Part shown: one piece after another, positions 18,364-56,631 of the stretch
Numbering within the stretch: the first letter of the stretch is position 1
Layout of the letters: each line of letters starts with the position of its first letter
NCBI GenBank assembly: GCA_965213925.1
Contig: OZ243927.1
Coordinates: forward strand, 1,792,001 to 1,856,000
Reading direction: 5' to 3'
From: Trueperaceae bacterium
GTDB taxonomy: Bacteria; Deinococcota; Deinococci; Deinococcales; Trueperaceae
DNA: 64,000 nucleotides
Made by a program: the position numbers and the translations under genes
Notes under the pieces: generated by a model
The model's database searches: none
Seen by the model: only the letters and a program-made list of their open reading frames with translations
What the model was told of the DNA's origin: nothing

Positions 18364-18420
18364 TTGACAGAGACGCGCGTCTTTACCTATACTGAGCTTA
18401 CCTTATTTATTAAGGTAAGC
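18364..18420 (+). promoter_or_regulatory. Sigma70 promoter and perfect palindromic operator upstream of the lexA-like gene
   Basis: TTGACA (18364)-18 nt-TATACT (18388); GCTTACCTTA-TTTAT-TAAGGTAAGC at 18396-18420. Confidence 0.8.
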
Positions 18421-18449
18421 ACGAGGCTAAAGAAGGAGACTGTGGAGCT

Positions 18450-19064
18450 ATGAGCCAGTTACCCAAGATGCAGCGCAAAGTTTACGAGCGAATCTGCGAG
18501 CATAAGTCGCGAACGGGCACCTGCCCGGAGCTTGCCGTTTTTGCGCGTGAGCTAAATATTCACTACGTGTCGCTCAAGCAGCATCTCGAGGCGCTCCACA
18601 AAAAGGGCTATCTGGTCTTCGAGAGCCGGGGCAGAGGGCAGTCGCCGAGGCTCGAGCTGCCCGCCAGAGCCACGGGCGTGCCCGTTTTAGGGAGCATTCC
18701 CGCAGGTCCACTCAGCGAGGCGTTAGCCGAGCCCGAGGGCTACTTGCCGCTCCACGACGGACAGAGCAACTTCGCGCTGCGGGTCTCGGGCGATTCGATG
18801 GCAGACCTTATTCAAGACGGCGACGTAGTGGTCTTCAAAAAGGGCGTCCCGATGCGCAGCGGCGAAATCTGCGCGGTGCGCGTCGGTAACAGCGAGGTCA
18901 CGTTGAAGTATCTCGACAAACTCGACCCGAAAACGGTCGCGCTGAGACCTCACAACCCGCAGTACCCGACGCTCTCCGTGGACGCGAGAGAGGTCCACAT
19001 CGAAGGGATTTACTTGGGTCTCGTGCGCGGCGAACTGCTCAGTTCGCTTTACGAGGAGGTGTGA
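18450..19064 (+). CDS. lexA: LexA-family repressor (winged HTH plus S24 autopeptidase)
   Basis: HLEALHKKGYL HTH end; scissile IPAG; catalytic Ser in VSGDSM and Lys in VTLKY. Confidence 0.88.
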   Translation: MSQLPKMQRKVYERICEHKSRTGTCPELAVFARELNIHYVSLKQHLEALHKKGYLVFESRGRGQSPRLELPARATGVPVLGSIPAGPLSEALAEPEGYLPLHDGQSNFALRVSGDSMADLIQDGDVVVFKKGVPMRSGEICAVRVGNSEVTLKYLDKLDPKTVALRPHNPQYPTLSVDAREVHIEGIYLGLVRGELLSSLYEEV

Positions 19065-19078
19065 TTTTAGCGTCGTCA

Positions 19079-19114
19079 TTGAATCGCGCGAGTATTACCT
19101 TAAAGTGTTACGTA
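19079..19114 (+). promoter_or_regulatory. Promoter of the ddrA-like operon, overlapped by a second operator copy
   Basis: TTGAAT-16 nt-TAAAGT; TACCTTA-AAGTG-TTACGTA at 19096-19114. Confidence 0.6.
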
Positions 19115-19292
19115 CCGAATGAACGGCTCAGGAGCGTAACCAGATAATACCCGTTGCGAATGTAGAGATTCCTCTCAAAAGCAGATGACCAAAGCAAAAG
19201 CCCGCGCCCCATCCGCCAAGAGTTGCGCGAGCCCACGCCTTGTCCGTCTAGCTCATACCCGTTTTCAGGCGGGACTAAAGGAGAACTAGCTC

Positions 19293-19661
19293 ATGAACTA
19301 TCCTGCACGCATCTTTAGGGATTTGTCAAGTGTTTGGCAAAGGGACGCCGCGAGTCAGCGCGTCGACATCCTAGCCGCCGAACTCACCGCCTGCGTCGCC
19401 GCGCAAGGCACGCTCTGCTTAGGTCTCATCCGCGCTGAGGCGGTGCCTAAGTACTTCGGTCTGGTTTACCTCTTAGACGGCTACGGTATCTTGCTGCGCA
19501 AGCGTCACAGAAAAGAGGGGGGCGTGCTCGTTTTTGCCGAGGTCAAGCGAGAGGTCGCGTCCGAGTTTGCGGGCGCAGTCGTCACCGAGCGCACTTTAGC
19601 GCCTTCTAAAACTGCCACAACCACGGTTGAAGTCGCAAGAGAATTCGCGCACGCCGCGTAA
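19293..19661 (+). CDS. Hypothetical protein, first gene of the ddrA-like operon
   Basis: AAGGAG RBS; 122 aa; ends AHAA. Confidence 0.65.
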   Translation: MNYPARIFRDLSSVWQRDAASQRVDILAAELTACVAAQGTLCLGLIRAEAVPKYFGLVYLLDGYGILLRKRHRKEGGVLVFAEVKREVASEFAGAVVTERTLAPSKTATTTVEVAREFAHAA

Positions 19662-19672
19662 GGAGGGTTGAG

Positions 19673-20350
19673 ATGAATACGAGTACCGACCTGACCTGGG
19701 AAACACTTTTGGAGAAACTCGCGCGACCCTTCCCGGTGTCCTCGATTTACTGGCGAGCGGGCGTGGTTAGCCGCGACAAGAAGCGGGCGCAGGCGCTACC
19801 TTACGCTGAGCCGCGCGTGTACGAAGACCGCCTTAACGGAGTCTGTCCTGGTCTCTGGAGCGTCTCCTTCCGTCCTTGGGGCGAATCGCGCATCATCTGC
19901 GACCTCTCGATCGGCGAATTGACGCGCTCCTCTACAGGGGAGGAGAACGAGGGTTTCGCGCCCGGTACGGCGGCGGAGGCGCAGGCGTTTAAGCGCGCTT
20001 GCGTGAAGTTCGGTCTCGGTCGCTACCTCTACGACGTTCCGATCGTCTGGGTTCCTTACGACGAGAAGTCGCGGAAGCTCACCGAGACGCCGACCTTGCC
20101 TGAGAAGTTTTTGCCTCACGAGCAAAGCGCACCGCCCACCCTCTCCGAAGGACGCGCCACCGCCATGCACCGCGAGCTAGAGAAGTTGGGTCTCGTCAAG
20201 CCTGAGCAGTATAGGCTCGCCGCGCGTGTGCTCGGTCACGAGGTCGCGCAGTTCACCGCGCTCACCGAAGCCGAGGCGTTAGAGGTCTGGAACGTCGCCA
20301 AGCGTGCTCAGGTAGGGCAGGGCGGTCCGTCAGCGCAGCGAGCGGCGTGA
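19673..20350 (+). CDS. ddrA: Rad52/Rad22-family single-strand annealing protein (DdrA-like)
   Basis: LARPFP...W, DRLNGVCPGLWS, AFKRACVKFGLGRYLYD; AGGAGG RBS. Confidence 0.85.
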   Translation: MNTSTDLTWETLLEKLARPFPVSSIYWRAGVVSRDKKRAQALPYAEPRVYEDRLNGVCPGLWSVSFRPWGESRIICDLSIGELTRSSTGEENEGFAPGTAAEAQAFKRACVKFGLGRYLYDVPIVWVPYDEKSRKLTETPTLPEKFLPHEQSAPPTLSEGRATAMHRELEKLGLVKPEQYRLAARVLGHEVAQFTALTEAEALEVWNVAKRAQVGQGGPSAQRAA

Positions 20351-20529
20351 CGAGCGCCGCCGTCCCTACCGCCACGGCTGAAACCGCTGAACGCGAACGC
20401 CTCTACCGCTGCCCCAAATGTAAACGCCGCGTGACGGTTTTGCTCGAGAACGTCGCCGTAAGCTGCAGTCGCTGTGGCCGGATGATGAAGCGCGTTGACG
20501 GTGGCGCTGAGCGAGTTCACACAGCTTAG
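20347..20529 (+). CDS. Small zinc-ribbon protein
   Basis: YRCPKC...CSRCGRMM; GTGA overlap with the ddrA stop. Confidence 0.7.
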   Translation: MTSAAVPTATAETAERERLYRCPKCKRRVTVLLENVAVSCSRCGRMMKRVDGGAERVHTA

Positions 20530-20702
20530 TAGGCTTGAATAAGCTCTTCTTAGTTCGGCGAGTGACGTAGTTTTGAAAAGGGATAGGCTCGAGTTCGCGT
20601 TGAGACTCGAGCCTCTTCCAACCGCTCTCGAGCCAGGTGTACGCCCCTGCCCAACTGCTTTGTTTAGTTCTCTTAACTACGCGGCGCTGCCGAAAGGACG
20701 AT

Positions 20703-20960
20703 ATGAATACCGGGCTTACTCTCACAACCTGTCCGCATTGTGACGGTGAAGGAGGAGAAATGTACGCAGCCGGACCTGGCTACTATGCGCCTCACTCTGG
20801 CGGTTATCTTCCCTTCGAACAGACCGATATATGCGAGATATGCGAAGGCTCAGGTGAGGTAGAGGTGTGCGCCCACTGCTTAGAACCTTTAGACGTCTTG
20901 CACGGCGAAGAGGTATGTGGCTGCGCTGCACTCAGCGCAGCCGTGCGACAAGCTGCGTAA
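20703..20960 (+). CDS. Cys-rich protein with DnaJ-like CxxCxGxG motifs
   Basis: CPHCDGEG, CEICEGSG, CAHC, CGC; GAAAGGA RBS; ends RQAA. Confidence 0.7.
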   Translation: MNTGLTLTTCPHCDGEGGEMYAAGPGYYAPHSGGYLPFEQTDICEICEGSGEVEVCAHCLEPLDVLHGEEVCGCAALSAAVRQAA

Positions 20961-20970
20961 AGAACTCGCG

Positions 20971-21828
20971 TTAGGGTGCGCGCTGCTTGAGTTGGTCGGA
21001 AACGTCTTGCGCAAGCTCGCGCCCTAGTTCTTCAGCCTCGCTCGCCTCGCCCGAAATCTCCGCTTGGATAACGAGGTCGCCCGCCATGTCGGTCACTGCG
21101 CCGAAGAGGTTCAAGTCGCCCTCCGAAGTGACGGTGGCAAGTGCGCCTAGCGCATGCGACGCGCTCCCTAGCGCCCTAGCGAAGCTCCGCTCGGCGCGGG
21201 CGCGGTCGAAGCTGGGGCGGTGCTGAAGGGTGTAGGCGAGATCGGTGGCGAGGTCGTCGTCTTCGTTGACGACCAAACCGAGCGACCCCTGCCCGGCAGC
21301 CGGGGTGAAGACGGCAGGCTCTAAAAGGACGTTGATGCGTTCTCTGCGCTCGAGCTGAAGCAGATGCGCGCTCGGCATCACGAGCGCGTTCACTTCGCCC
21401 GTAGCGAGCAGCGACAGCGTCACGTCAACGTCGCCGGAGACCGTCTTGACTTCGATATCCTTGCGGTTGGCGAGTAAGAAGGCGCGGTCGCGCTGGGTGC
21501 GAACGCCCACTACGCTACCTGCCGCTAGTGACGCTAAGTCCTCACCCGCGCGGTTGACTAGGGCGGCGCGGGGCTCGAGCCGCCTCGTCACAGCGGCGAG
21601 CATGAGCCCTTCGGGGAGGGTCGGAGGCAATCCCTCCAAGCTCTGCAGCGCAATATTGATGCGCCCGGTTGAAAGCGCATTCAGGAGGTTGGTTGCGCCG
21701 TTATCACCTTGCACAGTTTTCTGGATGATGTTGACGTCAGGCCAGCCCTCACTCAGTTCGGCGAGGACGCCGCGGGCTTGCGGCAGCGCCAAGACACCGC
21801 CCCGATTTCCTAAAACAATTCTAGGCAT
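20971..21828 (-). CDS. Degenerate HemC-like paralogue (probable pseudo-enzyme)
   Basis: HemC fold motifs (RLEPRAALV, PAAGQGSLG, AERSFARAL) but no SxKD aspartate and no GGC cofactor cysteine. Confidence 0.8.
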   Translation of the reverse strand: MPRIVLGNRGGVLALPQARGVLAELSEGWPDVNIIQKTVQGDNGATNLLNALSTGRINIALQSLEGLPPTLPEGLMLAAVTRRLEPRAALVNRAGEDLASLAAGSVVGVRTQRDRAFLLANRKDIEVKTVSGDVDVTLSLLATGEVNALVMPSAHLLQLERRERINVLLEPAVFTPAAGQGSLGLVVNEDDDLATDLAYTLQHRPSFDRARAERSFARALGSASHALGALATVTSEGDLNLFGAVTDMAGDLVIQAEISGEASEAEELGRELAQDVSDQLKQRAP

Positions 21829-22159
21829 GTGTTGGTTTCGTAGAGCGGTTTAAGGGTTGCTTCAATCTAGGCACGCTGCCAAGTACATAGTTAGACATAT
21901 GGTCGAACACACAGTATTTTACAGTAAATGCGTGGCGGGCGCTATAAAGACCGGACGGCGTCACCATCTCACCGACAACACATACTCGGCTACCTGTACT
22001 GGAGACGGCTTGAATAGCTTTTTCGAATTTTGGGCTGCTAGCCGATCCCTTCGATAATCACATCAGCGGTGAGCTGCGAGCTTGCTGGTGCGAACGTTGG
22101 CGCGCAGCCGTTTCTCGAAGGCGCTGTTATCTTGCTCGAGCCAGAAGGGAGTGCCCCGA

Positions 22160-22314
22160 GCTTAGAAAACTCGGCTAAGACTTCATCGACGCTCAAGCTG
22201 TTGGCCAGCAAATCCAAAATATCGACGACGCGAATGCGCTCATACGCGAATGCAGGGTCTGCCACCACACTGCTTAGGTTTGACGGCAATGCGGTCTATA
22301 ACGTAGGTGGTCAT
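22160..22314 (-). pseudogene. DUF433-family antitoxin pseudogene (frameshifted, 3' end replaced)
   Basis: MTTYVIDRIAVKPKQCGGRPCIR, then a frameshift to RIRVVDILDLLANSLSVDEVLAEF. Confidence 0.75.
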
Positions 22315-22372
22315 GAATTTAGCATAGACGAAAGCGGTGCACCTAGACAGAGTTGGGGGGCGTCCTCTCGAG

Positions 22373-22702
22373 CTAGTTAGCTACACGTGGGTCGGATACC
22401 TGCCAGGCCATCTCTTGCTCTCGAGCAATCCGGTAAAAGACAGACTCCCCCGTTTTTAGTCGGAACTCGACGTAGCTGTAGTTACCGAGACGAAACGATC
22501 GGCTCTTGGTGATGCGCGTACCTGGATGATCAGTCCGAAACTGCTTCTTCGCTAGACAAGCGCCGCCAACACGGAAGAGGTAGAAGAGCCAGCTTAGAAT
22601 ACCAATAACGGCGGAAATAAAAATGTAAACGAGCGCGACGGCCGCGCCTCCGCCTGGGAAGATGATGTAGTCACCTACTTGCATAATAGAATTATCCGAC
22701 AT
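22373..22702 (-). CDS. Hypothetical membrane protein
   Basis: ATG 22702; one long hydrophobic segment. Confidence 0.5.
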   Translation of the reverse strand: MSDNSIMQVGDYIIFPGGGAAVALVYIFISAVIGILSWLFYLFRVGGACLAKKQFRTDHPGTRITKSRSFRLGNYSYVEFRLKTGESVFYRIAREQEMAWQVSDPRVAN

Positions 22703-22793
22703 CGCGAAGCGGAATTCTTTCAAAAGCTCACATCTCGTTATAGTTGCAAAGTATTTAACGCAAAGTTCGGGAGAGGAACACCTACAACCACCC

Positions 22794-23846
22794 TCAAAAC
22801 GCATACCGCACCTCACAATACGGCAACTTCTCAGCGAGGAGCGTCTTAAACTCTCGCACCCGCGCCCCCTTAAACCCGCGCCGATACCGCACATTCTTCC
22901 CGCCCATCTTCGACACCTTCGCCTCTTGGTTCTCGGGCGTCCAGAGCAGGTCTTCGGCCTGCGGGTGCCACCCCAAGTTGACCTCGTGCAACCCCTCGTT
23001 GTGCGTCAGGAAGATGACCTCGCACTTGAGCTGCGCCTTAGCCTCTTCGGAGAGCACGTCGTCCACCTCTTCAAGTAGCGCGGCGTAGTCCTCGAGCCAG
23101 CCCTCATAGAGGATGACCGGGCTAAAGTTGAGGTGCACCTCGTAGCCCGCCGCCACGAAGTCATCTACCGCCGCGATGCGCTCGCTCATAGGCGAAGTGC
23201 GCACGTCTACTGTCTTAGCGACTTTTTGCGGCATGAGCGAGAAGCGGATGCGGGTCTTGCGCTGCGGGTCGTAGTTCAAGAGGTCGCGGTTGACGTATTT
23301 GGTCGCGAAAGAGGCTTTAGCGTTATCGAGGTCGCAGAAGAGCGCCACGAGGTCGCGGACATTGTCCGAGATGAGCGCGTCTACCGAACAGTCGCTGTTC
23401 TCGCCGACGTCGTAGACCCAGTAGACGGGGTCGGTTTGGAGGGGCGGCTTAGGGGGCTGTTTGGCGGCGTGGCGCTGAATCGCTTTGCACACCGCGCCTA
23501 TATTCACAAAGGCGCTGATGGGGTTGGCGTACCCCTTGCGGCGCGGCACGTAGCAGTAGGCGCACGCCATCGCGCAGCCGTTCGCGGTTCCTGGCGCGAT
23601 GAAGTCGCCGCTTCGCCCGTTCTCGCGTACTGGGAGTGACTTGCGCACGCCCAAGACGAGCACGTCTCGCTTGACGCGCACCCAGTCGTCCACCGAGCCC
23701 GCATTGCCGTGCAAGCTGGGGATGTTCCAGTGGGAAGGTACTTCGATCTGTTCTGCGTCAGGAAAACGCGCTAGAATTTCCATGCCTCTAGGGTAGGCGG
23801 GGACAGTGGGCTCGAGATATATCTGCTTGACGTCGAGAAGATTCAG
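22794..23846 (-). CDS. Spore photoproduct lyase-family radical SAM protein (copy 2), probable CTG start
   Basis: GCAMACAYC, YDVGENSD, RIRFSLMP; AGGAG 6 nt before an in-frame CTG adds NLLDVKQIYLEP...PRG. Confidence 0.88.
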   Translation of the reverse strand: MNLLDVKQIYLEPTVPAYPRGMEILARFPDAEQIEVPSHWNIPSLHGNAGSVDDWVRVKRDVLVLGVRKSLPVRENGRSGDFIAPGTANGCAMACAYCYVPRRKGYANPISAFVNIGAVCKAIQRHAAKQPPKPPLQTDPVYWVYDVGENSDCSVDALISDNVRDLVALFCDLDNAKASFATKYVNRDLLNYDPQRKTRIRFSLMPQKVAKTVDVRTSPMSERIAAVDDFVAAGYEVHLNFSPVILYEGWLEDYAALLEEVDDVLSEEAKAQLKCEVIFLTHNEGLHEVNLGWHPQAEDLLWTPENQEAKVSKMGGKNVRYRRGFKGARVREFKTLLAEKLPYCEVRYAF

Positions 23847-23913
23847 AGGGGTCTCCTAAACCAAAAGAAAAGAGGTGCCAGCCGCCAACAGCCGACACCT
23901 CGTGCGCATCTGC

Positions 23914-24990
23914 TTACGTCCAGTAAAGTACTTGCGCTTCGGGGAAACGCACCGCGATCTCCGTCTCGAAAAAGCCGCGCAGGGTCGTCATCGTGTCCTT
24001 CGTATAGACGAACTTCGTGCCGCCAAACTTGTTGCGCTTGACGCTGCGGTTCTCCTCGCTCAGGTCGAGGCTCGAGTTCGGATACCAACCCTCCAAGACC
24101 TCTTTCGAGCCGGGCGTGAAGCGGTGGCTGATCAGCTCGAAGGTGAGGTCAACGGGGAAGTCCAGGGTCTGCTCGATCTCGTCGAAGAGCGCAGTGTAGT
24201 GCTCGCGCCAACCCTCGATGGGCATAATCGGTGCGATGACCAAACCGACAGGGTAGCCCGCCTGGGCGAGCTTGCGGATGGCTCCTAAACGGGCGGAGAT
24301 GGAAGCGGTGCCGCCCTCGAGCCGCTTGCCAATCGGCTCTGCGTTGACCGACGCGCGGGCTCTCGTCTGCCCATTGTGCGGCAGGTCGAGCAAACCGTCC
24401 ACCGCGTCGAACTTACTGACGTAACGCAGTGAGCCGTCCGTGCGCGTGCCGAAGTACTTGATGCACTCGGACAAGCTGCCCGTGAGGTGCTCCAAACCCA
24501 AGGGGTCGGTGTAGCACGACACCTCGAAAGAGGTCGGACCATCCTCGTACTGCGCCAAGTGACCCAAAATCTCGGGCAGGTTGGCGTAGACACGGGTTAC
24601 GGGCGGACCGGAGAGCGAGCCCGCTAGGTAGCAGTACTGACAATGCGCAGGGCAACCTTTGGCGAGGTGGAACTGCCAGTCGGCGGAGGGCGGGATAGGC
24701 TGGAGCTTCATCATGCTGGGCGGCGCATTGACAACCGCCAGGGTCTGCTTGGCGAGGCGATAGGTCTCGCGCTCATCTTTGCCGCGCAAGCCCGTGACGC
24801 GGTTGCTAGGAAGTTCGGTGATGTCTAAACCCAAAGAGGTCATGCGTTCGTACATCTGCTGACCGAAAGGTTGCTCTAAAGCGTCCGGGGTGAAGAGCAC
24901 GCGCTTAGGGGTCCAGAGCTTGGGCTTTTGCTGGCGAGGAGCGGGACGCGAAACGGAAGAGGTCGGGCGGATAGGCTCGGCTGCAGGCAA
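23914..24990 (-). CDS. Spore photoproduct lyase-family radical SAM protein (copy 1), TTG start
   Basis: PIPPSADWQFHLAKGCPAHCQYCYL, FEVSCYTDP, HRFTPGSK, NKFGGTKFVY. Confidence 0.92.
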   Translation of the reverse strand: MPAAEPIRPTSSVSRPAPRQQKPKLWTPKRVLFTPDALEQPFGQQMYERMTSLGLDITELPSNRVTGLRGKDERETYRLAKQTLAVVNAPPSMMKLQPIPPSADWQFHLAKGCPAHCQYCYLAGSLSGPPVTRVYANLPEILGHLAQYEDGPTSFEVSCYTDPLGLEHLTGSLSECIKYFGTRTDGSLRYVSKFDAVDGLLDLPHNGQTRARASVNAEPIGKRLEGGTASISARLGAIRKLAQAGYPVGLVIAPIMPIEGWREHYTALFDEIEQTLDFPVDLTFELISHRFTPGSKEVLEGWYPNSSLDLSEENRSVKRNKFGGTKFVYTKDTMTTLRGFFETEIAVRFPEAQVLYWT

Positions 24991-25081
24991 AGAGGTCTCC
25001 TTCTTCGCGAGAAAGTTGGGTTGTCTAAAGGGGTAAAAAGGTAGTGGAGTTGCGCTTGAGGTCGCTAACTAACTTGAGTTT

Positions 25082-25102
25082 ATTGTACTCAATTTTAAGG
25101 TG
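25082..25102 (-). promoter_or_regulatory. SPL-operon -10 (TACAAT) with an adjacent operator half site
   Basis: Minus strand CACCTTA-AAATT-GAGTACAAT. Confidence 0.45.
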
Positions 25103-25181
25103 AAAAGCAAGGTGCCTGAGTCACATTTTAAGCTGTGCAGGACGAGGAAAAGTCAATTTTTCTACTGGTCATGGGGAAGAG

Positions 25182-25670
25182 CTACACATTGTCCCGAGAA
25201 GGTGGAAGAATACGAGCTAGATCATCTTCAACATCTAATCCGTACATTACAGCAAGTACGCCAAGCCGTAAGCCTATGTCTGAACGCAACTTGCCGAGAG
25301 ATGTAAAGAATTTCCAGCTTCTAGGACCCCCATCAAAGCTACTACGGATAATCAATTGCCGTTGTCCCTCCTGAACGTCATCTAAAAACTCTCGACAAGC
25401 AGCTCGCATGACTCGCAGATGTTCAGCTAAATCCTCCTGATTCTGTAGGCCTTGAAGCGTATCAGTAAGGAACTCACGTATCATCATTACCGATTCCACA
25501 CAATGCTCTAGCACCTCGAGTGCGTAATCGTTGTAAAGTACGCGCCTATCTTCAAAGAACGCTATTATGCGTCGCGCAACTGTAATCTCAGGTTCTGAGG
25601 GCTCCCAAGAAACGCCGAAGATTGGAATGCTGAATCCCGTGATACGGCTCGCTATCTCCTTATAGTGCAT
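25182..25670 (-). CDS. DUF6650-like hypothetical protein, low GC
   Basis: RITGFSIPIFGVSW, FFEDRRVLY, MRAACREFL motifs. Confidence 0.7.
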   Translation of the reverse strand: MHYKEIASRITGFSIPIFGVSWEPSEPEITVARRIIAFFEDRRVLYNDYALEVLEHCVESVMMIREFLTDTLQGLQNQEDLAEHLRVMRAACREFLDDVQEGQRQLIIRSSFDGGPRSWKFFTSLGKLRSDIGLRLGVLAVMYGLDVEDDLARILPPSRDNV

Positions 25671-25743
25671 GGTTACTCTTATACCGTATAGCGCGGCAAA
25701 AACCCTTCATCAAACCTTTTCGCTCAACGCCTTCACACGTCAT

Positions 25744-26019
25744 TCAAGCACTTTTGGGTAGAGGCATATCATCAGGCTCAGCGAACGCAACCTCGTGGAT
25801 AGCGTTCCAGTCAATCACAGCAATCCAGATATTTTCATCAGTAGAAAACTGGACGCGCCCCTCGGTCTCTAAATCTTCGCTGTAGAGCGTGAGGCGCAGA
25901 CCCTCTTCTAAGGTAATGCGCTGCCGTGATAAGTCTTGCACCGTACCAACACAATTGAGGCGCAAACGACCGTTTGGGTCGGCGCTGTGAAAGTCGGCGT
26001 ATACACGGGGGGTGCTCAT
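25744..26019 (-). CDS. Small protein, candidate immunity/antitoxin partner
   Basis: YADFHSAD.GRLRL...W.AVIDW; own leaderless -10 TATACT; directly downstream of the putative toxin. Confidence 0.6.
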   Translation of the reverse strand: MSTPRVYADFHSADPNGRLRLNCVGTVQDLSRQRITLEEGLRLTLYSEDLETEGRVQFSTDENIWIAVIDWNAIHEVAFAEPDDMPLPKSA

Positions 26020-26031
26020 AAAGCGAGTATA

Positions 26032-26364
26032 TCACCTCTCTATTCGCGCTGGATTAGGCTGCGTAGGCGTAAGGAGACGGCTGATTTGCTCAGGTACTAA
26101 CCCTGTGAGGGTAGCGTGATAAGGGCTTCTGCCGGAGGTGCGTACGACATCGCCCCCTAGACTCCGAACTTCGCCGACAGTCGTTACGCCTACTTGACCA
26201 TGAGGAAGGGTCTTTGCCAACTCCAGCATAGAAATATCATCCGCGCACTCAACGGAAATACCTGTGACACCACTTGGGTGCGTTCCGGTTGCTCTAGCGA
26301 TATCTTCAGGGCGGTTACGCCCACCTCTTACGACGAGCGCTTCATCAGGAATGTCGTGTTGCAC
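26032..26364 (-). CDS. Stand-alone polymorphic-toxin-like domain (Tse2/ART-like R-S-H motifs)
   Basis: LVVRGG, GISV, GVTTVGEVRSLGGDV, PYHATL. Confidence 0.55.
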   Translation of the reverse strand: MQHDIPDEALVVRGGRNRPEDIARATGTHPSGVTGISVECADDISMLELAKTLPHGQVGVTTVGEVRSLGGDVVRTSGRSPYHATLTGLVPEQISRLLTPTQPNPARIER

Positions 26365-26408
26365 CGAACGACTTTAACATTGAGGAGCGCAATAGAGCCT
26401 AAAACGGT

Positions 26409-28313
<1,905 letters not shown>

Positions 28314-28420
28314 AAGGTTTAGTTTACCTCTTGTTTACGTTCAACCTCCTAAAGCCAGGAGTCACGATGTGTCGCAATGGGGTAGTCCGTGAATTTTCGT
28401 GCTGACCCCTGTCTACACCG

Positions 28421-28693
28421 TTACTCCAAGAGCTTCTCGAGCCGGGTCATCACCGCTTCGATGTCGTCCCTCGCGTGCCCCAGACCGCTCATGAGCCGCC
28501 AAATATTCTGTTCGTCGCTCGAGTTGGGGTCGTACAATTCGCGCATCTGCTGCATCAAAAAAGAGGCGAGCACGTTCCTAAAGCTCTGCGTTTTATCGCC
28601 GCTCTTTTCCATATCGAGAAACTGATGGACGAGAAACTCGTCGGGGTAGGCTTCGCTCGCCTTTTTGATAATTTCGTCTAAGCTTTTGGACAT
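28421..28693 (-). CDS. Hypothetical small acidic protein
   Basis: GAGG RBS before ATG 28693; 90 aa. Confidence 0.5.
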   Translation of the reverse strand: MSKSLDEIIKKASEAYPDEFLVHQFLDMEKSGDKTQSFRNVLASFLMQQMRELYDPNSSDEQNIWRLMSGLGHARDDIEAVMTRLEKLLE

Positions 28694-28832
28694 CGCGCCT
28701 CGCTTCGGCTCAGTGTACTGAAAAATGAGAGCCTCGCTAGGATAAATAGGGCGGTTGTACTTCCGTTCTTCCTCATCTGTCCTAGTGGGGTGAGTCAGCG
28801 TGAGGTGAGTCAGCACCTCGAGCCTTACGTTC

Positions 28833-30251
28833 TTACTTTATAAGCGCACCAAGACGCACCTTCGCCGCTTGGTAGCTCTTCTTCGCGTCCACAATAGGTG
28901 ACGGATAGTCCCGCCCAATAACGCAGCCCAGCATCTCTTGTAAGAGGGGGGGCGTTTTATGCGGCTCGGCGAGGTAAGGCGTCGGTAACGCGCGGAGTTC
29001 GGGGACGTAGCGGCGGATAAACGCGCCCGTCGGGTCGCGCTCTTGGGCTTGCTTGACGGGATTATAGATGCGTAAAGTGCCGCGTCCCGTCGTCCCGGCT
29101 TGCATCTGATGTTGCGACCAGTGGATGCCCGGCTCCATGTCCAAAAAGTGCTTCGCTGTAAAAATCCCGACCTCGCGCCAGTGGAGTCCTAAGTGATGCG
29201 TCGCGAAGGAGACGAGCATCGCCCGCATCCGAAAGTTGATCCAGCCGCCCCTATGCAACGCCCGCATACAAGCGTCTACGAGCGGATAGCCCGTCCTCCC
29301 GGCGCACCAAGCGTCGAAGAGGTCTGGGTTATGCGTGTTGTCCAAGAGGTCGAACCTGGGGTCTATGTTGTCGAACTCGAGCCCCGGATTCGACTCCAAC
29401 TTCTGGATAAAGTGGCAGCGCCACCGCAGGCGCGACTGGAAAGAGGTCAAAGAACGCAGCCAGCGCCAGTCGGCGTCAGCGCCCTCGAGCTTCAAGACTT
29501 CCAGCGCGTCCAACTGCTTTGTAGCTGTCTGATAGACCTCTCGCGTGGACAGGTTGCCGAACGACAGATACGGTCCCAACTGACTGCACGCGCGCTGCGC
29601 TCTCTCCGGGCTCGACATTTCGCGGTAGTAGCTGCGCCCCCTATAGGCGAGAAAGGTGCGGAGTTCGCCTCTCGCCTGCGTTTCGCCGCCTAGCCGCGCT
29701 TCGTTTTTCGTACTCGGCGGTAAGCCTAAATCTACCGGCGTGCGAATCGCTTCGGCGGGAACCTCTTTCACTGCGCTGATATGTAAAGGCGTCGGCGCAA
29801 GCCGTTCTCTCATCTGCCGCCGCCACGTGTCGCCCCAGCCGCGCCTATCTTTAAGCCCTCTCGTGATGCCAGGTTGCGGCGTCTCTGCCCAGCGCACGCC
29901 CCGCGCTTTTGTCCACGCCTTGACCCGCTTGTCGCGGCGGTACGTCAGCGCGTTGCCCGTCTCCTCGTGACTCCAGAGGGTGAAGGGACCGAGCTGCGCG
30001 TGGAGCGTCTCTAAAACTTGCGTCACCTCGCCGACGCGGTAGGTCAACCTGCCGCCAACGTCGCTGAGCTTCGTGTCTAAGTCTAAGAGCGACTGGTTGA
30101 TAAATTCCAGGTGTGAAGCGTCGACCTCTTCGTTGTAGAGTTCGGGTTCGTAAACGTAGAGACACAAGGTAGGTCCACGCCGCGCCGCCTCGAAAAGAGG
30201 CGCGTGGTCGCTCAGACGCAAATCTCGCTTGAACCAGACGACGTGAAGCAC
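28833..30251 (-). CDS. Photolyase/cryptochrome family protein
   Basis: VVWFKRDLRLSDH, SQLGPYLSFG, GRTGYPLVDACMR, WINFRMRAML, RIYNPVKQ. Confidence 0.95.
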   Translation of the reverse strand: MLHVVWFKRDLRLSDHAPLFEAARRGPTLCLYVYEPELYNEEVDASHLEFINQSLLDLDTKLSDVGGRLTYRVGEVTQVLETLHAQLGPFTLWSHEETGNALTYRRDKRVKAWTKARGVRWAETPQPGITRGLKDRRGWGDTWRRQMRERLAPTPLHISAVKEVPAEAIRTPVDLGLPPSTKNEARLGGETQARGELRTFLAYRGRSYYREMSSPERAQRACSQLGPYLSFGNLSTREVYQTATKQLDALEVLKLEGADADWRWLRSLTSFQSRLRWRCHFIQKLESNPGLEFDNIDPRFDLLDNTHNPDLFDAWCAGRTGYPLVDACMRALHRGGWINFRMRAMLVSFATHHLGLHWREVGIFTAKHFLDMEPGIHWSQHQMQAGTTGRGTLRIYNPVKQAQERDPTGAFIRRYVPELRALPTPYLAEPHKTPPLLQEMLGCVIGRDYPSPIVDAKKSYQAAKVRLGALIK

Positions 30252-30257
30252 GATACT

Positions 30258-30280
30258 AGAATACCTTAAATTTTAAGTAT
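30258..30280 (-). promoter_or_regulatory. Photolyase leaderless promoter overlapped by an operator copy
   Basis: -10 TATTCT 6 nt before the GTG; plus strand TACCTTA-AATTT-TAAGTAT at 30262-30280. Confidence 0.6.
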
Positions 30281-53226: not shown

Positions 53227-56158
<2,932 letters not shown>

Positions 56159-56300
56159 TTATTCTGGACTTATTTTCAATCACTCTTATTCGTCATTGTC
56201 GCAACTTTGAGGTTTAGTCGAATTGAGGACCACTATGTTTTAGAACTTCGCGTTTTAGAACCTTTGCGTCCGAGATGAGATGATACCTCTCTATCTTTTT

Positions 56301-56416
<116 letters not shown>

Positions 56417-56434
56417 ATTTATTTCAAGACTCAT

Positions 56435-56470
56435 GAGGTGTTGCCCGCTTGGGTAGCGCCTCTTATTTTT
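56435..56470 (+). terminator. Intrinsic terminator after 5S
   Basis: GAGGTGTTGCCC-gctt-GGGTAGCGCCTC followed by a T-rich tract. Confidence 0.7.
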
Positions 56471-56555
56471 AAGCTGAATACATGGGTATCTGAAACGAAA
56501 AAATAGACACCGCAGTTTTGACTGATAGCGTCTTTTGATGGATGATACCCATCCT

Positions 56556-56631
<76 letters not shown>

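Follow-up and report, generated by a model that had tools for sequence, protein, structure and literature searches.

A stretch of 64,000 nucleotides (nt), positions 1792001-1856000 of contig C1 from a Trueperaceae bacterium (G000; 4.75 Mb, 58% G+C) and hereafter called the window, was analysed for a repeated palindrome and the genes that it precedes, and 41 genomes of the family Trueperaceae, including the sister species G001, were used for comparison. The locus contains an intact gene of the LexA family, which is followed by a small operon for a DdrA-like single-strand annealing protein and, further downstream, by two SPL-family radical-SAM genes and a photolyase gene. A preliminary description of this DNA had quoted four sequences related to TACCTTA-N5-TAAGGTA, one at each of these promoters, and had proposed a local LexA-like repressor for a UV/desiccation module; all four sequences were found where it had placed them and the neighbouring gene calls were confirmed. 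As detailed below, TACCTTA-N5-TAAGGTA is very probably the LexA operator (SOS box) of the Trueperaceae within the order Deinococcales, and it is distributed over the whole genome.

The site ahead of lexA, GCTTACCTTA-TTTAT-TAAGGTAAGC, is a perfect palindrome of 10+5+10 nt. It starts 3 nt past the -10 element of the promoter TTGACA-18-TATACT, which ends at 18393, so that the described position just downstream of the -10 is confirmed; the palindrome ends 30 nt ahead of the ATG. Given this position after the -10, the palindrome is expected to cover the transcription start of lexA. With a weight matrix built from 41 lexA and recA sites, from which near-duplicate genomes had been dropped, the site scored 30.8 bits. 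The consensus of the 41 sites was taCCTTA-awWwt-TAAGGta, in which the core CCTTA-N5-TAAGG is invariant and the spacer rich in A/T, while the flanks beyond 19 bp carried 0.01-0.14 bits and hold no information outside the box.

Within the window alone the evidence for the motif is weak: three sites have no more than 3 mismatches where 0.79 would be expected, and 6 of 100 shuffles also reach three. Genome-wide, the exact pattern occurred at 6 sites (0.005 expected) and the pattern with 1 mismatch at 3 sites (0.25 expected), and this excess shows that the motif is real. The counts at 2 mismatches (8 sites, 5.5 expected) and 3 mismatches (81 sites, 75 expected) are close to chance, so that such sites have to be assessed by position weighting and by conservation. 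When the matrix was scanned over G000 and over three second-order Markov genomes as the null, 8 sites reached at least 25 bits compared with 0, 0 and 0, and 9 sites reached at least 20 bits compared with 1, 0 and 1; at 12 bits or more the numbers were 34 and 14-16. The nine best sites lie 10-144 nt upstream of start codons (the exact ones 10-60 nt), six of them elsewhere on the chromosome than the window cluster, with the recA site among the six. About nine operators in G000 are considered credible.

The motif was then followed through the family. LexA was detected in 40 of the 41 genomes. When the best site within 250 nt upstream of lexA was taken at 30 loci, it had at most 2 mismatches at 28, 3 at one and 5 at another, and a box with up to 3 mismatches stands 22-113 nt ahead of lexA at 29 of the 30. 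For recA, one copy per genome was looked at, and 27 loci were usable while 3 were too short; up to 3 mismatches were found at 19 of the 27, and in G000 recA is preceded by an exact box that ends 32 nt ahead of it. As background, 60 loci were tiled in segments of 280 nt, 53 of 718 of which held a site with up to 3 mismatches; about 48 of these are the promoter sites themselves, which leaves a background of about 1%. The pattern with at most 1 mismatch was present in 36 of the 41 genomes, at 183 sites compared with 3 for the reversed control, and the exact pattern in 11 of 18 other family genomes; of 12 genomes that represent four further families in the order, none had it. The only family genome without LexA, by two queries, is G032, in whose sequence neither the core CCTTA-N5-TAAGG nor a recA box could be found.

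Two observations on these genes are recorded separately. At least 11 of the 41 genomes have two intact-looking recA copies; in G000 a second copy outside the window (C1:2391049-2392054) is 96-98% identical to the first and broken, with one TAA stop and with halves that match in different frames. The lexA box with 5 mismatches belongs to G033 (L042) and has the core CCTTC-N5-GAAGG, in which an otherwise near-invariant position is altered symmetrically in the two arms, and the recognition helix of the G033 LexA is without an obvious change that would match it.

The LexA protein of the window contains a DNA-binding domain (PF01726, 30.1 bits with a cut-off of 23.7, residues 1-56) and an S24 domain (PF00717, 84.6 bits). 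It could be aligned from end to end with the LexA of E. coli, and the Ala-Gly bond, the Ser and the Lys are kept: SIPAGPL aligns with RVAAGEP at the scissile bond, and the Ser of VSGDSM and the Lys of TLKYL align with VSGMSM and TVKRL, respectively. The E. coli dyad residues are Ser119 and Lys156. An 81%-identical protein is named 'LexA family protein [Truepera radiovictrix]' by NCBI, and among the matches listed (at least 120, 62-96% identical) the named ones are all Truepera, Trueperaceae or Deinococcales. In five genomes from elsewhere in the order, outside the family, the best match was 30% identical and two genomes had no match; with so distant a LexA or none, the operator could not be tied to the known box of a neighbouring lineage. 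The presumed recognition helix HYVSL(K/R)QHL and the wing ESRGRGxSP are almost invariant across 30 family LexAs, in step with the invariant core of the motif. For the same reason, covariation between helix and box was uninformative over these 30 proteins.

Taken together, the LexA is intact and apparently cleavable, and the palindrome apparently behaves as its operator. The layout corresponds, at the sequence level, to autoregulation, with the box 3-6 nt after the lexA -10 and kept in 29 of 30 family lexA promoters. Judged by the site positions, repression most likely takes two forms. At lexA and at the stand-alone annealing operons of relatives, a LexA dimer on the palindrome just after the -10 would block RNA polymerase. 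At recA and the photolyase gene, a dimer would cover the spacer between -35 and -10, with the end of the box forming the start of the -10, and would block the polymerase there. Upon DNA damage, RecA filaments would stimulate the self-cut of LexA at Ala-Gly through the Ser/Lys dyad, and the genes would be released. The features of the window concerned are listed in Table 1.

Table 1. Genes and sites of the window that are discussed in the text (positions counted from the first nucleotide of the window)
Feature	Position	Strand	Basis or remark
lexA promoter, TTGACA-18 nt-TATACT	18364..18393	+	Consensus scan, 11/12 matches
Predicted LexA operator (SOS box), GCTTACCTTA-TTTAT-TAAGGTAAGC	18396..18420		Core TACCTTA-TTTAT-TAAGGTA at 18399-18417
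lexA, 204 amino acids (aa), winged-helix DNA-binding and S24 self-cleaving domains	18450..19064	+	Pfam
Weak box-like site TACCTTA-AAGTG-TTACGTA between lexA and orf122	19096..19114		12/14 match
orf122, conserved gene at the head of the annealing-protein operon	19293..19661	+	tblastn
Rad52/Erf-type single-strand annealing protein (DdrA-like), 225 aa	19673..20350	+	PHROG, Pfam
orf107, usually near the annealing-protein gene in relatives	20637..20960	+	tblastn in 10/19 annealing-protein loci, including that of the window
SPL-family radical-SAM genes (two)	23914-24990 and 22794-23783		Gene calls confirmed
orf131, 16 nt downstream of the photolyase gene	28421..28816	-	List of open reading frames (ORFs); no Pfam or NCBIfam match
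Photolyase/cryptochrome-family gene, 472 aa	28833..30251	-	FAD_binding_7 217 bits, DNA_photolyase 74.9 bits
Predicted LexA box of the photolyase promoter, ATACTTA-AAATT-TAAGGTA	30262..30280	-	Matrix and orthologues

The annealing protein matched phrog_1097 (Erf-like ssDNA annealing protein, E 2e-21) and Rad52_Rad22 (25.7 bits with a cut-off of 20.3), and a sequence search of PDB returned nothing. Three genomes from another family of the order were searched and all gave matches (identity 34-35%, E between about 1e-24 and 1e-26), which are at most putative ddrA orthologues. The gene is present in 17 of the 41 family genomes, and in 11 loci orf122 stands directly ahead of it (tblastn, E 1e-24 or better). 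No match to orf122 was found in Pfam, NCBIfam, PHROG or PDB sequences, and its best Atlas score of 0.77 is below the quotable level; orf107 matched no family in Pfam, NCBIfam or PHROG. Where the operon lies away from lexA, all five cases carry a box of 26.0-32.8 bits right after TTGACA-N17-TATACT and 144-243 nt before orf122, and by this arrangement the DdrA-like operon is predicted to be a member of the LexA regulon in relatives.

In six genomes (G000, G001, G005, G051, G037 and the unpublished G047) the operon directly follows lexA, and the best scores in the spacer between lexA and orf122 ranged from -16.1 to 12.4 bits, with only G000 at 12.4. That score belongs to the site at 19096, which the preliminary description had put on the -10 of the operon. 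A LexA-controlled promoter of the operon's own at 19096 would be in keeping with the one perfect half of the site and with its distance of 197 nt from orf122, which is inside the range of the stand-alone operons. However, both mismatches fall at near-invariant positions, about half of the sites with such scores are expected by chance (34 against 14-16), a counterpart was found neither in the sister species G001 nor in G005, G051, G037 or G047, and a scan of the G000 spacer gave no promoter-like or terminator-like site and no such hexamers around the box. A separate promoter is accordingly unlikely, as is any function of the 19096 site, which is probably a chance or decaying half-site and not a working operator. 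Membership of the operon in the regulon, which had also been proposed, holds up in the relatives with stand-alone operons but not through this site. With no box and no promoter-like or terminator-like site in the spacer, the most economical view is that the lexA promoter and its operator also serve the operon, and we lean towards control of the operon in this genome through the repressed lexA promoter. The fold of the spacer had a z-score of -1.74, and 8 of 200 shuffles folded as well. Separately, a block CCGCGCC(C)CATCCGCCAAGA at window 19190-19240 is kept in the lexA-orf122 spacers of G001, G005, G051 and G037.

For the photolyase product, all NCBIfam models of photolyase subtypes stayed below their cut-offs. 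Its promoter site matches TACCTTA-N5-TAAGGTA at 11 of 14 positions and ranked ninth in G000 with 21.7 bits. Seven orthologues were found among the 41 genomes, three of which have a box at the equal position (G000 21.7, G001 30.3 and G037 27.4 bits), so that the claimed site is backed by stronger boxes in two of the six other orthologues. In these three genomes the box is followed by a -10-like hexamer (TATTCT, TATATT or TATACT) and by a GTG start 5-7 nt further on. The position of the box on the -10, which was confirmed at lexA and failed at 19096, is plausible here, as the site runs into TATTCT about 7 nt ahead of the GTG. The GTG right after the -10-like hexamer suggests a leaderless photolyase mRNA, and orf131 is possibly co-transcribed with the photolyase gene. 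On this evidence, control of the photolyase by LexA in this genome is likely.

Several points count against the palindrome as the LexA operator or against parts of the regulon. Boxes were missing at 8 of the 27 recA loci. The co-occurrence of LexA and motif depends on G032 alone, a genome with 9% contamination. The family genomes are a related sample and their counts are not independent, and the sites of the matrix were picked by likeness to the pattern, which makes the scores partly circular. LexA marginally missed the equivalog cut-off of TIGR00498 (107.5 against 110.95 bits, match 1-193 of 204). The photolyase site of this genome departs from the consensus at a near-invariant G, and the four more distant of the seven orthologues are without a box. 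Co-transcription of lexA and orf122 across the 228-nt spacer is deduced only from the lack of a box and of a terminator-like site and from synteny in six genomes. More generally, motif excess, positions, conservation and the catalytic residues were read from the sequence, and from these we infer binding, cleavage, induction and co-transcription.

Binding of the palindrome by another regulator, of the Crp family or of an XRE/DdrO-like type, with lexA as just one of its targets, is the rival for the motif as a whole. LexA binding to the box is itself deduced, a Crp-family gene is boxed in both G000 and G001, and the excerpted text of PMC1978522 assigns the damage regulon of Deinococcus to DdrO and not to LexA. 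Against this, the lexA promoter is the most consistently boxed one (29/30), as autoregulation predicts, the Crp-family target turned up in a single genus, and G032, which lacks LexA, lacks the motif too. Furthermore, the only PF06114 (IrrE-type) match in G000 is ArdC-like and not an IrrE orthologue. This search, for which Deinococcus radiodurans was positive as the control, gave no IrrE orthologue in G000, while DdrO itself was not searched for. The matching protein has an ArdC N-terminal domain and is located beside a second annealing-protein paralogue. We regard a different regulator as improbable and retain LexA as the factor that would bind the box.

The second paralogue is a side observation. 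It lies in L118 (C1:2634822-2637977), is 57% identical to the first (50% by tblastn) and directly follows the ArdC-like protein, which has a metalloprotease motif; no LexA box was found nearby. The arrangement suggests a mobile-element module.

Control of the SPL genes by LexA was considered as a candidate and rejected. The sequence at 25084-25102 contains one half-site only (TAAGGTG) and scored 0.5 bits, no box of at least 8 bits was found within 1500 nt upstream in any of seven SPL orthologues, and the half-site reads differently in G001 and G051 despite a conserved surrounding promoter. Such control is very improbable, and this part of the preliminary description was abandoned; of the four quoted sites, three are real at the level of sequence and this one is without meaning. 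Past the first SPL gene there is a strong terminator-like hairpin. As an observation in its own right, the SPL promoter has another imperfect palindrome at window ~25072-25094, ACTTGAGT-N7-ACTCAATT, which encloses a minus-strand TACAAT resembling a -10. Conservation of this stretch extends to G001 and G051, and it may be the operator of another regulator.

The SPL result bears also on the proposal of a local LexA-like repressor whose control would be limited to a UV/desiccation module of the adjacent annealing operon, the SPL pair and the photolyase. Three of the genomic sites do lie within 12 kb, in which genes for UV-photoproduct repair are clustered. The remaining six of the nine best sites, recA included, are elsewhere on the chromosome, the SPL genes have no box in this genome or in the orthologues, and the clustering is not conserved, as G001 and G037 have hundreds of kb between their photolyase and SPL genes. 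A module of this kind is highly improbable, and the proposal gives way to a genome-wide box with recA as a prime target, although its choice of a LexA repressor for the palindrome is supported. A role of the 19-mer as the terminus of a small mobile or repetitive element, which a perfect inverted repeat in several copies might suggest, has a negligible probability, because the conservation ends at 19 bp, the copies are set at a constant spacing from the -10 boxes and start codons of genes that are unrelated, and the same promoters are boxed across genera with differing spacer sequences.

With LexA as the probable regulator, the other boxes point to further members of the regulon. Other strong boxes in G000 precede a glyoxalase/bleomycin-resistance-like gene, an ABC exporter, the Crp-family regulator, and two genes of 127 aa and 148 aa without an assigned function. 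An exact box also stands about 10 nt before the start of an ORF of 68 aa with a hydrophobic stretch (L005:4026-4232; C1 ~3739425-3739631), where the end of the box runs into a -10-like TATAGT and extra TACCTTA half-sites flank the box. This ORF is 53% identical in G001 and is located just upstream of dnaE (DNA polymerase III alpha; L005:4331-8001), which bears an intein with a LAGLIDADG domain. SOS-controlled small membrane proteins of other bacteria are known as cell-division inhibitors or toxins.

Of the 183 sites, 40 more, belonging to 12 relatives, were surveyed for their flanking genes by clustering of ORFs that had been chosen by a crude longest-ORF rule, and most of these had no family. 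Recurring targets were the glyoxalase-like gene (G000, G001, G005, G018), the gene of 127 aa (G000, G001, G051) and dnaE (G000, G001, G016, with the box of G016 at the predicted dnaE start). Single cases were a two-domain ssb (G052), a DinB-family protein (G010), a Prim-Pol protein (G051) and TfoX (G038). In G018 a PA0069-family radical-SAM gene (L142:1519-2592; 463 bits, above cut-off) starts right after an exact box, and no gene of this family was found in G000. Among the best G000 sites uvrA/B, ruvAB, umuDC and sulA were absent, with no search aimed at them individually. If the regulon is as predicted, orf122, orf107, the proteins of 127 and 148 aa and the membrane protein of 68 aa become candidates for damage-response functions. 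In the window, an Rfam scan gave only rRNA and tRNA and nothing near lexA or the photolyase gene; the 23S rRNA, 5S rRNA and tRNA genes at window 53227-56628 are unrelated to the LexA finding.

We conclude that the Trueperaceae, a sister lineage of Deinococcus, appear to have a classical LexA/RecA SOS system with an apparently undescribed operator. The SOS box of E. coli is CTGT-N8-ACAG and that of Gram-positive bacteria (Cheo box) is GAAC-N4-GTTC; further LexA motifs are those of the alpha-proteobacteria (a direct repeat), the cyanobacteria, Bdellovibrio and Leptospira. The consensus of the Trueperaceae has neither CTGT/ACAG nor GAAC/GTTC arms, and the earlier statement that the box resembles neither the E. 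coli nor the Bacillus type is supported. To our knowledge, CCTTA-N5-TAAGG is matched by none of these LexA motifs. A LexA motif for Truepera or Trueperaceae was not found in the full-text literature searched, a scope outside which regulon databases and subscription journals lie.

The system shares with the SOS response of E. coli a LexA with winged-helix and S24 domains and the Ala-Gly, Ser and Lys residues, a palindrome at its own promoter, recA as a target, and operators that overlap the -10, the -35 or the start site. It differs in the 7-5-7 operator with the core CCTTA/TAAGG, in the small regulon, and in the presumed recognition helix, which reads HYVSLKQH here and SPNAAEEH in E. coli. Like the LexAs of Gram-positive bacteria and of other lineages, it has its own drifted palindrome while lexA and recA are kept as the core targets. 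LexA operators have diverged repeatedly among lineages, and each new one makes a damage regulon predictable. For direct photoproduct repair there is one published prediction, that of a LexA-regulated splB in alpha- and beta-proteobacteria (PMC3323433). The placing of such a repair gene under SOS control is shared, as the PA0069-family gene of G018 lies behind an exact box and may be of the same kind as the proteobacterial 'splB'. In contrast, the boxed gene of G000 is a flavin photolyase, and both of its SPL-family radical-SAM genes are unboxed.

The closest comparison is that with Deinococcus, the textbook exception, of which a deep-branching radiation-resistant relative appears to use a classical LexA box. 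In the excerpts of PMC1978522, recA and ddrA of Deinococcus are preceded by the motif for the response to radiation and desiccation (RDRM), which is assigned to DdrO, and according to the excerpts of PMC1978522 and PMC4148983 the lexA of Deinococcus is not damage-induced and does not control recA. This lack of a LexA SOS regulon, which the preliminary description had cited, is not carried over to the Trueperaceae, in which recA itself is boxed. The effectors overlap with those of the IrrE(PprI)/DdrO response, as a LexA box stands before recA here, before the DdrA-like operon in relatives and before ssb in one relative. The two systems differ in the motif and in the repressor, which is a LexA/S24 protein with predicted self-cleavage in one and an XRE repressor cut by a metalloprotease in the other. 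It is conceivable, though we hold it as a tentative and rather doubtful idea, that the Trueperaceae keep the ancestral response of the Deinococcus lineage, with LexA over recA, the DdrA-type operon, ssb and the photolyase, and that Deinococcus later moved the effectors to IrrE/DdrO and left its LexAs without a recognisable regulon. If so, the Trueperaceae would be the missing comparison that explains the idle-looking LexA of Deinococcus, and the CCTTA-N5-TAAGG operator could be used as a probe for residual LexA sites there. The comparison would offer a concrete and testable case of regulon rewiring, in which the same effector genes are held by different repressors.

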